Positions 60,226 through 63,764 of a stretch of DNA of 64,000 bases are shown piece after piece. The notes below the pieces were generated by a model. It was given only the letters and a program-made list of their open reading frames with translations, made no database searches and had not been told where the DNA came from. This DNA comes from a virus. A program made the translations under genes and the position numbers. Every line of letters starts with the position of its first letter. Within the stretch, counting starts at the first letter, position 1. Where the stretch lies: UHGV virus genome UHGV-0311442. One strand, 5' to 3'.

Positions 60226-60278
60226 AAATAATAAAAGTTACCCTACTCCTTCTGGAGTAGGGTAATCTTTTTTAATCG
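60226..60278 (+). terminator. Rho-independent terminator, bidirectional
   Basis: 11-bp stem TACCCTACTCC/GGAGTAGGGTA, loop TTCT, then ATCTTTTTT; A-run before. Confidence 0.85.
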
Positions 60279-61942
60279 ACTAATTTATTGAACTTCCCAC
60301 CCTTCACAAGTGGGTTGGACTTGGCACGCTTCAACACCGTTGCCATAGACCCTGCGGCCTTGCACCACATGTTAATCATGTTTGCACTGTGCGCAACAGA
60401 ATCCCAGACATTACGGTCAGGGTTTAACACCATCATCGTGGTCAATTCACGACCGTGAAGGTTAAAGTTTTCCCCTCGCGTCACTTGGTCTTTAAACGCC
60501 TGTTCCATCGCCTGCCATTTCTGAGTGTCAACACCAGAACGTGATTGACGTGCCATCTCTTTCAAGGTTTTTACAACCTGATCGACACGTTTTTCTAGCA
60601 CCTTATACTTGTCCAGCGCAGTATTCGCTACACCATCCGAGATACCACTACGTGCCAGTGTAATCAGACATGCTAACAACTCACGATAGTCACCGTTACT
60701 TAAGCTCAACTCCTGGCGCATCATCTCCAGGTTTGTCGTGGAGCCAAAGAAAGAGTTAGCACCGATTGATGCAATCATCCAACCGTTGTCTAATTCACGT
60801 GTGGTATAGCCGAGAAGCTCAACCTTGTCTTTTACACGCAAAATTGGACCAGGGCTACCTTTCTGTCGACCGAATTCCGTGGCAGAATATTCAATTCGAC
60901 CATTGATCTCACCTAACGCACGAACCAAATGCACCGCAGCAACTTGGTTCTCTTGCGGTGTACCTACCTTCGGGTTATTCGACAGGTAATAGGTTTTGAT
61001 GTCTTTCAGCGACTGGTCTAAGTCCTGAAGCGCACCGGCAAAACTGTCGAGAATCGTGCTCATTAAGTTGAACTGAATATCTGACGGAATGTTCACCCCA
61101 GCACGCTTCACATCAGGCGGCAAGCCATTATAGACTTCCTCAGCAACCCCGAAGTCAAATACACCGTAACCGATGTTCGTCCGTAGCAGCGTATCGAGCA
61201 GATCCTGAATAACCTGCAGCTCATTCTGCCGACGTTTAAGATGGTTCTTAAACGTATCGATAAACGGTGATTTACCTAACGCAGCGGCGAGTTTATTTAG
61301 AAACTCTTCAGCTTCCATGTTCACGAAAACGTCGTCAGCCAGCGAAAGAGATAACTCCAGGTTGCTTAACTCGCTGTCTTTCAAACCTTTTGACAGTACC
61401 AGATAAACTTCTTTCAGTACGGTTGTTTTCAAACGCTCTGTGAAAGGAACATCGGCCAACTTCTCTTCCAGTTTCTCGCGATAGTCGTTCCCGTCAATGT
61501 TCGCAGCACCTGCAAAAGGAACAGCGTTGCTGATAATCCAACTGAGGATTTTCATTATTCCCATCATCACCATCACGATGAGGCTAATCTTACCAAAATT
61601 AGCGTAAGACTCTAATGCCACCACCGTTTCTTTCTGGTGTGTTTTGGAATAATTCGACGTCAGTACACTTTGTACCGCCTTCGGGATTGTGCCAGGACGC
61701 AACGATTCAGTCGCTACAGCAACATCACGGTTCAACCCTGCTTTACGTATTTCCCGTAAGATCGCTTCAATCTGCGCGATAAGACGAGAGCCGTAAATCA
61801 GGTCTGCTTCATTACGTTGCATGTAGAGATTGAGTTGGCTAACAGAATCGATGCGTTCTTCCATGCGCTGTTCTAATAGTGCAGGAAGTTCATCGAGCTT
61901 CCACTGCGGTTGCGCAATGTTTGCTGTCATCTCCATACTCAT
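60272..61942 (-). CDS. Membrane-associated protein (about 556 aa); start set to ATG at 61942
   Basis: ATGA overlap with the stop of 61939..62382; TM segment ISLIVMVMMGIMKILSWIISNAV. Confidence 0.65.
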   Translation of the reverse strand: MSMEMTANIAQPQWKLDELPALLEQRMEERIDSVSQLNLYMQRNEADLIYGSRLIAQIEAILREIRKAGLNRDVAVATESLRPGTIPKAVQSVLTSNYSKTHQKETVVALESYANFGKISLIVMVMMGIMKILSWIISNAVPFAGAANIDGNDYREKLEEKLADVPFTERLKTTVLKEVYLVLSKGLKDSELSNLELSLSLADDVFVNMEAEEFLNKLAAALGKSPFIDTFKNHLKRRQNELQVIQDLLDTLLRTNIGYGVFDFGVAEEVYNGLPPDVKRAGVNIPSDIQFNLMSTILDSFAGALQDLDQSLKDIKTYYLSNNPKVGTPQENQVAAVHLVRALGEINGRIEYSATEFGRQKGSPGPILRVKDKVELLGYTTRELDNGWMIASIGANSFFGSTTNLEMMRQELSLSNGDYRELLACLITLARSGISDGVANTALDKYKVLEKRVDQVVKTLKEMARQSRSGVDTQKWQAMEQAFKDQVTRGENFNLHGRELTTMMVLNPDRNVWDSVAHSANMINMWCKAAGSMATVLKRAKSNPLVKGGKFNKLVD

Positions 61943-62382
61943 ACCAGCTCGCCTCGCGTTTCTTCCATATAGAATTTCACCGTTTCCATGAAACGTTCCA
62001 GCCACAGATTGACGGTATCCCATACGTCGTCACCCAAAGCTTCATTGAAAATCTCACGGACAGAGAAATTCTCAATAGCACGACGACCACCCCAAGCGCT
62101 ATCGTAGCGGTTACAAAACAGAGCCACTGTCAAATCTTCAATGCTGCCCAGATCGACACAATAAAGCTCGTTTACATCCGAAACAACATTTTTCATCAGT
62201 GGGCGGAGTTTTAGCTGCGACACTTCATTCGACCCAAACGGACCATTATCAGGCATATCGGTATTATAAGCCAATGCGAATGCGACCAGGCCAGTCAGTG
62301 CGCGTTGTGCCTGTACACCTTTACCCTCGTTCGTACGTTTAAAGTCCAGAACCAGGGAATTTAAAGAAACTTTATGCGTCAT
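61939..62382 (-). CDS. Hypothetical protein (147 aa)
   Basis: ORF between the peptidase and the membrane protein. Confidence 0.6.
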   Translation of the reverse strand: MTHKVSLNSLVLDFKRTNEGKGVQAQRALTGLVAFALAYNTDMPDNGPFGSNEVSQLKLRPLMKNVVSDVNELYCVDLGSIEDLTVALFCNRYDSAWGGRRAIENFSVREIFNEALGDDVWDTVNLWLERFMETVKFYMEETRGELV

Positions 62383-62396
62383 GATTTTACCTTTAC

Positions 62397-63764
62397 TTAT
62401 TCGACATTAAACATGGCTGAAGCAATACGAAGATCGTTCGACATATACTTCCCAATCGCGCGCTGGTAATCAACTGCAGCACGTGAGCGACGACCCTTCG
62501 GCGTTAAAGTATTCCAGATAAACTGGTACAAGTTATCTTTGTCTTTTACGGTTTCTAATAACTTGTCGATAACCGCAATACCATCTAAAATACGTTTACG
62601 TTGCTCGTTAGCAGCTTTCGTATTCTTGTCTTTAATCGTATTGAGTTCTTCAACGAGTGTACGTCGCATTGCCTCAAAACGCTGCTGTGGCGGATCGTAA
62701 ATGGTGTTATCCGGGTCATTTAAGATCATTCCGAAAGTCACGGAGATCACCGGAATAATTGGAATCGTAGAAGAGACTATCAGCGCAGTCACGCGGAAAA
62801 GTTCTACTGTCAAATGGACACCCATGTTCATATACGCTGAGTTCCGCAGCAAATAGAACGAACTGGTTTCCATTTTATACAGTGCAGAGGCCAGATAAGG
62901 AGCGCCTCCGAAACGGGAAGCAAAATCATCCGCAGCACGTTCCCACGTCCTGTTAGCAAAGCCTTGACTACCGCTAATGAACGGACGATCTAATAACAGC
63001 TGTGTGACCAAGTGCATGTAGACGTTTTCTTTTTTGTACTCAGTACAAATCGTTTCTGGCTGATTCACTTTCGTGTTCAGCATCTTCTCTACGTCTTTAA
63101 CAATGCGCAAGCGGACAGTTTGGTCTTCTGTTTCCATGATGCGGTTAGCCGCAGCATCTGCCAGCAAATCAGTCACCACAGTGCGCATCAGTGTACGGAA
63201 ATAATAGTAGATGTGCCCGACTTCGTGAAGAATCACCGAGGCGATTTCCAGATCGGTCAAATTTAATTTTTCCAACAGCACCGGGGTAAGATAAAGCGGA
63301 GAACCCACTTTGCTTAGATCGCCGCTGATTTTTGCACTGCTGTCATCGATTGTTGTGTTTAGCTCGTTTTCTTTGATGAATTTACTGTACATATCCAGGT
63401 CTTTGTTACCTGCGTACAGCGCACGAGTCATCGAAGCGATGATTGGACTGTTTGCATCCAATTTCGGTGGTTCCACACCTGCAAAAGCAACGTCAGCAAG
63501 ACCCAGTTCACCACCGTTCTTAAAGTGAATCGTAATGCCGATATTCTTAAATACCCAATCCGAAACCCCGGCACTTTCGTAGCCAGCAGGACTGAAATCG
63601 CCTGCTCCACGAAACTTAGCAATAATATCAGCCAATTCTGCCAGCTTCTTTTTGTCTTGGAATTTAATCGATTCTGCGGCTACAACCTTTGCATCCGCAA
63701 CTGATGCAATGTGATTTTGCCAATATCCCATTTGTGTTTCCTTTTGAGAAATTACATTACCCAC
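62397..63764 (-). CDS. M48-like zinc metallopeptidase (455 aa)
   Basis: HEVGH motif followed about 95 aa later by ERAADDFA (M48 third zinc-ligand signature E-x-x-A-D-x-F-A), then a hydrophobic stretch. Confidence 0.65.
   Translation of the reverse strand: MGNVISQKETQMGYWQNHIASVADAKVVAAESIKFQDKKKLAELADIIAKFRGAGDFSPAGYESAGVSDWVFKNIGITIHFKNGGELGLADVAFAGVEPPKLDANSPIIASMTRALYAGNKDLDMYSKFIKENELNTTIDDSSAKISGDLSKVGSPLYLTPVLLEKLNLTDLEIASVILHEVGHIYYYFRTLMRTVVTDLLADAAANRIMETEDQTVRLRIVKDVEKMLNTKVNQPETICTEYKKENVYMHLVTQLLLDRPFISGSQGFANRTWERAADDFASRFGGAPYLASALYKMETSSFYLLRNSAYMNMGVHLTVELFRVTALIVSSTIPIIPVISVTFGMILNDPDNTIYDPPQQRFEAMRRTLVEELNTIKDKNTKAANEQRKRILDGIAVIDKLLETVKDKDNLYQFIWNTLTPKGRRSRAAVDYQRAIGKYMSNDLRIASAMFNVE

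Follow-up and report, generated by a model that had tools for sequence, protein, structure and literature searches.

A predicted M48-like zinc metallopeptidase in a head-protein operon of an SPN3US-like jumbo phage

Introduction

The closest described counterparts of the locus analysed here are the genes for gp45, gp46 and gp47 of the jumbo phage SPN3US, whose products were all identified as head proteins by mass spectrometry, with spectral abundances (SC/M) of 2.99, 1.05 and 2.17, respectively, against 1.29 for the 12-copy portal. The first of them, gp45, is the 11th most abundant protein of the virion and is catalogued as "head, unknown function" (PMC10052503). We examined a stretch of 64,000 nucleotides from the virus genome UHGV-0311442 (hereafter the window), in which three tightly packed, consecutive open reading frames (ORFs) on the minus strand, at 60272-63764, encode orthologs of these three proteins, and we focus on the gp45 ortholog, a predicted zinc metallopeptidase. 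An earlier note, made from the letters of the window alone, had described the three genes as an operon for an M48-like metallopeptidase and a large membrane protein, and had asked whether the peptidase is virion-associated; the published proteomics of SPN3US answers this question, as gp45, gp46 and gp47 are all located in the head.

SPN3US gp45 loses its 20 N-terminal residues at ASE-20, where it is cut by the prohead protease gp245 (PMC5694885 Table 1; PMC10052503 Table 2). The third protein of the set, gp47, is essential, is cut at AVE-79 with ALE-111 as the expected maturation site, and has a transmembrane helix predicted by TMHMM (PMC5694885). The particles of its amber mutant look intact but do not infect, and the authors inferred from this that gp47 is an ejection protein (PMC5694885).

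In phiKZ, the corresponding gp84-86 are annotated as structural head proteins. Both phiKZ gp85 and Goslar gp66 form the dimeric core of an inner-capsid vertex-binding complex (PMC11297242; Goslar preprint), phiKZ gp86 is a peripheral subunit of the same complex (PMC11297242), and Goslar gp65 likewise belongs to it. The full complement is gp28, gp85, gp86, gp91, gp119, gp162 and gp184 in phiKZ (PDB 8Y6V), and gp42, gp59, gp65, gp66 and gp192 in Goslar. A homologue of the first companion of the peptidase and a positional counterpart of the second are included in both complexes, whereas the peptidase itself (gp84 in phiKZ, gp67 in Goslar) is seen in neither.

More generally, nucleus-forming jumbo phages package dozens of head proteins without an assigned function. 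Members of the Chimalliviridae deliver the injected DNA first to a lipid vesicle, for which no protein machinery has been described, and which of the packaged proteins build this vesicle or act on it is a question for the field.

The peptidase gene and its catalytic core

The three ORFs encode 455, 147 and 556 residues, as the earlier note had listed, and lie at 62397-63764, 61939-62382 and 60272-61942, respectively. The figure of 455 residues holds for the longest ORF, which opens with a GTG at 63764 that has no ribosome-binding site. The gene itself most likely covers 62397..63731 on the minus strand and would encode 444 residues, because all 28 homologues compared start at an ATG lying eleven codons inside this ORF (MGYWQNH...), at 63731, and a Shine-Dalgarno-like AAGGAAA is found 6-7 nt upstream of it. 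Automatic longest-ORF calling over-extends the gene by 11 codons (63732-63764). The 444-residue numbering is used below unless stated otherwise.

The protein contains an HEVGH motif (63213..63227, minus strand; residues 169-173, or 180-184 in the 455-residue form), predicted to provide two zinc-ligand histidines and the catalytic glutamate. It is followed by ERAADDFA (residues 275-282 of the 455-residue form), of which ERAAD (62928..62942, minus strand; residues 264-268) would provide the glutamate that is the third zinc ligand and a conserved aspartate, and then by a hydrophobic stretch. The order of these elements is as first noted, and the spacing, given there as about 95 residues, is exactly 95.

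In an alignment of 126 diverse relatives gathered by profile search, with a mean column identity of 26%, residues H169, E170, G172, H173, E264 and D268 are invariant (126/126). At E<=1e-3, the profile search reached 2,007 clusters at 50% identity, nearly all of them made of proteins of 400-460 residues and matched end to end. The spacing from HExxH to ExxAD is 65-102 residues, with a median of 95, in 63 of 64 homologues from IMG/VR; these loci were retrieved with both motifs as bait, which biases motif counts taken from them, a bias from which the 126-sequence alignment is free.

The assignment to M48 proposed in the earlier note stands at the level of the superfamily. Taken singly, the 455-residue ORF matches the Pfam family Peptidase_M48 with 16.8 bits (E=0.0062) and the 444-residue form with 16.6 bits, which is below the gathering score of 20.3 bits, and for this reason we do not claim membership of the curated family PF01435. 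Peptidase_M48 is the sole recurrent Pfam match in all 29 close homologues, and it is matched at E<=0.01 by 34 of 100 diverse relatives, the best at 2e-5.

When the 126-sequence profile was compared with 177,635 PDB sequences, it reached human ZMPSTE24 (E=1.7e-5, 26.7 bits). The alignment places HExGH on HELGH (H335-H339) and R-x-W-E-x-L-A-D on RRFEFQAD (aligned segment, residues 412-441), in which the aligned glutamate is the third zinc ligand of ZMPSTE24, E415. A diverse profile was needed to reach significance: one built from 29 sequences found ZMPSTE24 at E=0.7, and a phmmer search of the PDB with the single protein returned nothing relevant. Precomputed Pfam fields were empty for all homologues, and the match to the NCBIfam HtpX model was negligible (13.5 bits, for a cut-off of 422). 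The M56 family (BlaR1/MecR1; PF05569), which had been put forward as a second profile to check, is not supported, as neither the window protein nor any of the 29 homologues matched it in Pfam at E<=1.

Structure prediction had also been proposed. In the AlphaFold model, the catalytic domain adopts an M48-like gluzincin fold, and the top 11 Foldseek matches of the model are all Ste24 or ZMPSTE24, none of them individually significant (no E-value below 0.04). Taken together, profile, motif and model support the prediction that the core is a divergent M48/Ste24-like gluzincin, of the Ste24/HtpX/BepA type, with its catalytic residues intact.

The resemblance to M48 (Ste24/ZMPSTE24 in M48A, HtpX and BepA in M48B, Oma1 in M48C; PF01435) lies in the HExxH motif followed by a glutamate in an (R)-x-x-E-x-x-A-D helix. 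With Ste24, the phage protein also shares a hydrophobic segment after the helix of the third ligand. Among characterised M48 enzymes, most are embedded in a membrane or associated with one, and they typically act at membranes; the transmembrane helices number 7 in Ste24 and 4 in HtpX. However, unlike Ste24, HtpX and Oma1, the 444-residue protein has no multi-pass membrane domain, and carries instead one short hairpin after the catalytic core. This absence is compatible with the superfamily, as BepA shows that soluble M48 members exist. It also differs from these enzymes in two additional domains, one N-terminal, alpha/beta and ~130 residues long, the other C-terminal, helical and ~100 residues long, and in its predicted capsid-targeting propeptide and packaging in the virion.

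A conserved HExxH in a virion-packaged protein has been described in the C1 domain of the virion RNA polymerase of coliphage N4, a phage that ejects this polymerase with its DNA (PMC13434306). However, homology between the N4 C1 domain and the 444-residue protein is undetectable, and the N4 motif lies inside a 3,500-residue polymerase.

Our literature searches on jumbo-phage M48 peptidases and metalloproteases found no paper that calls a protein of the gp45/gp84 family a peptidase, and the label "beta-barrel assembly-enhancing protease", assigned automatically, is attached to family members in two GenBank records. With respect to the searchable literature, what is new is the recognition of the gp45/gp84 family as a conserved M48-like metallopeptidase, the genes and their virion location being already known.

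The hydrophobic stretch covers about residues 318-349 of the 455-residue form by Kyte-Doolittle analysis (62718..62813, minus strand; about residues 307-338 of the 444-residue protein), and the AlphaFold model folds it as a hairpin of two helices (314-333 and 336-348 in the 455-residue numbering). In all 64 distinct IMG/VR homologues, hydrophobicity peaks at 1.3 or more, and the median distance of this peak from the preceding HExxH is 144 residues. In the 126-sequence alignment, the hairpin is followed by near-invariant Y345 and D346, by P348, which is invariant or near-invariant, and by invariant R351.

Eight metagenomic relatives of 804-1,452 residues (P0064, P0079, P0095, P0119, P0065, P0112, P0130 and P0087) carry the whole peptidase module at their C-terminus, or at the N-terminus in the case of P0087. 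Their extra 400-1,000 residues have no Pfam or PHROG match, and these long relatives may be real fusions or the product of read-through in gene calling.

Phage lineage and gene neighbourhood

The protein matches, the gene order and the PHROG profiles all agree with SPN3US, phiKZ and Goslar, and on this basis we assign the source of the window to an SPN3US-like jumbo phage of the nucleus-forming, Chimalliviridae type. While megablast of the 3.5-kb region against GenBank phages gave no match, the peptidase protein matches 221 phage records by tblastn. The best protein matches, at 70-72% identity, are to the SPN3US-like jumbo phages known from Salmonella, Erwinia and Proteus; phiKZ-like Pseudomonas phages come next. 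The 444-residue protein is 70% identical to SPN3US gp45, 26% to phiKZ gp84 (E=2e-20) and 24% to Goslar gp67 (E=2e-22), and it matches phrog_2767 (E=3e-151) over positions 1-439 of 442. These orthologs have the same length, the same neighbours and the same S/A/G-x-E-20 motif as the window protein, from which they show no structural difference beyond sequence divergence.

Gene order is conserved as well. PHROG profiles confirm all five genes of the block, that is the three head genes and two convergent ones, and SPN3US has the same arrangement, with the DNA polymerase gene gp44 in divergent orientation, then gp45, gp46 and gp47, and the convergent gp48 and gp49. The same block corresponds to gp84-gp88 in phiKZ and to gp67-gp62 in Goslar. 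The DNA polymerase gene is divergent in the window, SPN3US and Goslar, whereas in phiKZ it is co-oriented and separated from gp84 by gp83.

The peptidase gene lies beside the same neighbours in dozens of jumbo-phage contigs. The arrangement looked for downstream was a gene for about 145 residues and then one for 420-600. Among the 60 IMG/VR loci with at least 3 kb downstream, the first downstream ORF encodes 110-185 residues in 51, and an ORF of at least 380 residues is found among the next three in 43; 30-33 of these 43 large ORFs carry a hydrophobic segment in their first 200 residues. Rather than being an unusual phage gene, as it had seemed from the sequence of the window, the peptidase gene is thus a widespread ortholog of gp45/gp84/gp67 with conserved neighbours and about 2,000 clusters at 50% identity.

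The lineage of the window, with genomes of about 221-225 kb, is distinct and known solely from metagenome and Logan assemblies, and two IMG/VR contigs of 221-225 kb (L004 and L005) match at 99% identity. A variant of the peptidase with 91% identity is deposited under Salmonella Enteritidis genome assemblies, in a cluster of 384 member sequences, and numerous assemblies of Salmonella and E. coli isolates contain SPN3US-type gp47 proteins, the contigs that carry them measuring about 240 kb. The presence of jumbo-phage genes in isolate assemblies suggests carrier-state or contaminating phage.

Head packaging and companion proteins

Codons 1-20 of the peptidase gene (63672..63731, minus strand) encode a putative propeptide that ends in A-A-E, with a predicted prohead-protease site at E20|S21. 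E20 is invariant in the 126 relatives, position 18 is S, A or G in 116 of them, and position 21 is A, S or G in 112. Since S/A/G-x-E|A/S, in which the invariant E20 lies, is the phiKZ-type prohead-protease motif, the whole family is likely to be packaged into the prohead and trimmed at the N-terminus. The peptidase is not itself the prohead protease: in SPN3US this enzyme is the serine protease gp245, and gp45 is one of its substrates (PMC5694885, PMC10052503).

The second gene of the operon (61939..62382, minus strand) encodes the 147-residue ortholog of SPN3US gp46, which matches phrog_8529 (E=1e-77). Direct BLASTP of this protein against phiKZ gp85 was negative. However, when the 1,914 ORFs contained in the fetched loci were searched iteratively with hidden Markov models (HMMs), the search converged on a family of 61 ORFs in 61 loci that includes both Goslar gp66 (E=1.3e-19) and phiKZ gp85 (E=1.3e-13). 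This provides good but not final evidence, through a transitive link in a small database, that the 147-residue protein is a homologue of phiKZ gp85 and Goslar gp66.

The third gene (60272..61942, minus strand) encodes a 556-residue protein that matches phrog_8131 (E=2e-144) and is 41% identical to SPN3US gp47. It is counted from an internal ATG, the first ATG of the ORF giving 583 residues; for SPN3US gp47, mass spectrometry showed the matching start (peptide SMEMTGN...; PMC5694885). The sites E79|S80 and E111|S112 are invariant and are the same as AVE-79 and ALE-111 in SPN3US. A single hydrophobic segment is present, at about residues 114-141 (61520..61603, minus strand), directly after the predicted cleavage at ALE-111. 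The earlier note had called the product a large membrane protein; it is the counterpart of gp47, an essential, processed head protein. The translational coupling that had been proposed for the three genes would apply to the second junction alone, where the 147- and 556-residue genes overlap at ATGA; the first junction is a 14-nt gap, with a ribosome-binding-like AAGG of its own for the 147-residue gene.

The relation of the 556-residue protein to phiKZ gp86 and Goslar gp65 is plausible but unproven, and is based on position. BLASTP against phiKZ gp86 and a profile search of the PDB both found no match, and iterative HMMs started from the two sides never meet. An hhalign comparison of the 556-residue family with gp86 gave a probability of 25% (P=8e-4), in the propeptide region only. 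The 556-residue protein shares with phiKZ gp86 its position in the gene block and the loss of an N-terminal propeptide of ~110 residues, and the phiKZ gp86 family includes members of 485-596 residues with a hydrophobic segment at about residues 110-155, as in gp47.

The best-conserved part of the gp47-like protein is encoded at 61507-61942 and corresponds to the N-terminal 145 codons, that is the propeptide and the first hydrophobic helix, with many invariant columns, while the mature body is about 40% identical to that of SPN3US gp47. Cleaved-off segments are not usually so well conserved, which points to a separate function for the propeptide, for instance in targeting or scaffolding. In Goslar (27031-32687 of the fetched locus), two proteins of ~930 residues, gp65 and gp64, stand in place of the single 556-residue gp47 found in SPN3US-like phages. 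Only gp65 of this pair has been reported in the vertex-binding complex, and gp64 has no relatives among the fetched loci.

Possible roles of the peptidase

We favour, with a probability of roughly 0.4, a role for the mature enzyme as a membrane-acting zinc endopeptidase, packaged in the capsid and ejected together with the DNA. The operon would supply three internal head proteins of an SPN3US-like jumbo phage, the peptidase being co-expressed with a gp85-like subunit of the vertex-binding complex and with the essential gp47. The 20-residue propeptide would target the protein, and would be removed inside the prohead by the serine prohead protease at S/A/G-x-E. By analogy with M48 enzymes, Zn2+ would be held by H169, H173 and E264, with E170 as the general base and D268 supporting the site. 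The mature enzyme would then be kept in the capsid and exit with the DNA, its hairpin would insert into the host inner membrane or into the membrane of the early-infection (EPI) vesicle, and the endopeptidase, now close to the membrane, would cut a host substrate or a co-ejected phage one.

Four observations lead us to prefer this role: the conserved hairpin, which keeps a constant distance from the active site, has no obvious use inside the capsid; the co-encoded gp47 combines a hydrophobic helix with an infection-defective phenotype; M48 enzymes typically work at membranes; and the genome is delivered into a lipid vesicle for which no protein components have been described. Moreover, phiKZ gp184 is both a member of the vertex-binding complex and a validated injected protein, and residence at the capsid wall is therefore compatible with ejection.

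A number of points weigh against a membrane-acting, ejected enzyme. For gp45, gp84 and gp67, the literature reports neither activity and zinc binding nor ejection and membrane insertion. Neither gp84 nor gp67 is resolved in the capsid maps of phiKZ and Goslar or mentioned in the two structural papers, and we did not find them among those examined for injection. PHIKZ084 does not appear in the accessible part of the gene table of the phiKZ antisense screen, from which it could not be told whether the gene had been tested, and the accessible portions of the papers on this screen, on CRISPRi-ART and on PCH45 Tn-seq yielded no statement on the essentiality of the ortholog. The hairpin is short (about 2 x 15-20 residues) and, instead of anchoring the protein in a membrane, could form a buried interface between proteins. 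Finally, there is the shortfall from the Pfam gathering score reported above, and the structural model is of moderate quality (pLDDT 69.7, pTM 0.72).

A more specific version of the same idea would make the gp45/gp84 peptidase and gp47/gp86 part of the phage-encoded membrane machinery of the EPI vesicle, stored at the inner vertices, ejected, and inserted into the host inner membrane, where the protease would cleave a host or phage membrane protein for the formation or sealing of the vesicle or for the hand-over of the genome to the phage nucleus. We consider this version quite improbable.

The main rival explanation, which we find doubtful, is that the peptidase stays in the head, perhaps near the vertex-binding complex, and serves as a second maturation enzyme that degrades the large propeptide and scaffold fragments set free at S/A/G-x-E sites, so that the pieces are small enough to exit the shell before DNA packaging; removal of its own propeptide by the serine prohead protease would possibly be the activation step. 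It is consistent with the location of the peptidase in the head, where it is a prohead-protease substrate (PMC10052503), and with the fact that it is always co-encoded with proteins of the inner-capsid vertex-binding complex (PMC11297242). The abundance of gp45, near that of gp47 (2.99 vs 2.17 SC/M), would fit about one copy per unit of the vertex complex. There would also be much to clear from the SPN3US prohead, with more than 600 copies each of the 125-137-residue propeptides of gp53 and gp54, plus 1,560 copies of the 130-residue propeptide of the major capsid protein. Relatives among the minigluzincins are zymogens that a terminal segment keeps blocked, in agreement with an activation step of this kind. 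However, all 14 mapped cleavage sites in SPN3US head proteins fit the A-x-E motif of gp245 and indicate no second specificity, and the head retains the N-terminal fragment of gp47 (PMC5694885). The conserved hairpin, again, has no obvious use in a membrane-free capsid, and no density in the capsid maps has been assigned to gp84 or gp67.

It is unlikely that the protein is a structural or chaperone-like head component built on a zincin scaffold, whose metal site would serve in folding or in partner binding, for instance by holding hydrophobic segments that belong to gp47 or to other ejection proteins. Such a role would agree with the literature entry, which does not go beyond the head location, with the weak sequence similarity to M48, and with the placement of over half of the protein outside the catalytic core, in the N-terminal (~130 residues) and C-terminal helical (~100 residues) domains. 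However, pseudo-peptidases usually lose the general base, and here the glutamate of HExxH and all three predicted ligands are kept in 126 of 126 relatives that have only about 26% mean column identity.

That the motifs resemble M48 by chance in a protein that is not a zincin is very improbable, as the sub-threshold Pfam score of the single sequence (16.8 bits, E=0.006), the phmmer search of the PDB and the Foldseek values that would allow it are set against a family profile that reaches ZMPSTE24 at E=1.7e-5, invariant motif residues and a motif spacing held at 65-102 residues (median 95).

Whichever role applies, a conserved and fairly abundant head protein with a complete M48-type active site, found over about 2,000 clusters, offers a concrete enzymatic handle. 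With the genetic or knock-down tools that exist for SPN3US, phiKZ and Goslar, one can ask whether a second proteolytic step, dependent on metal, takes place as the head matures or as infection is initiated. The annotation of the neighbours is also corrected, from a generic "membrane protein" to a vertex-binding-complex subunit and an essential head protein. We do not see a surprise at the level of mechanism; the value lies in a cheap and decisive experiment for a field that studies injected and capsid-internal proteins.

Flanking regions

Upstream of the operon, a divergent DNA polymerase gene begins at 63803 on the plus strand, and the N-terminus of its product matches the SPN3US gp44 DNA polymerase. 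The 71-bp intergenic region between it and the peptidase gene (63732..63802) presumably contains the promoter of the operon; a promoter scan of this region returned a single sigma-70-like match, at 63799-63770, no better than expected from shuffled sequence.

On the other side, a bidirectional intrinsic-terminator hairpin (60237..60266) separates the head operon from a convergent one. It has a perfect GC-rich stem of 12-13 bp with T-runs on both strands, and its RNA fold has an energy of -24 kcal/mol (z=-6.5), with none of 200 shuffles equally stable.

The convergent operon (55969-60221, plus strand) belongs to the baseplate and not to the head. Its 432-residue protein matches the Pfam family Phage_TTP_15 (E=3e-176), and the counterparts of this protein in Goslar (gp62) and phiKZ (gp88) form the tail-tube initiator ring. 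The other protein, of 984 residues, corresponds to Goslar gp63 and phiKZ gp87, a wedge protein of the inner baseplate.

On the low-coordinate side of this baseplate pair, at 50642-55942 on the minus strand, the window contains ORFs of 368, 311, 186, 423 and 420 residues. By position and length, they occupy the places of SPN3US gp50-gp54, which are processed head proteins and include two very abundant ejection or inner-body proteins, and the peptidase operon would therefore sit at the edge of a cluster of genes for internal head proteins.

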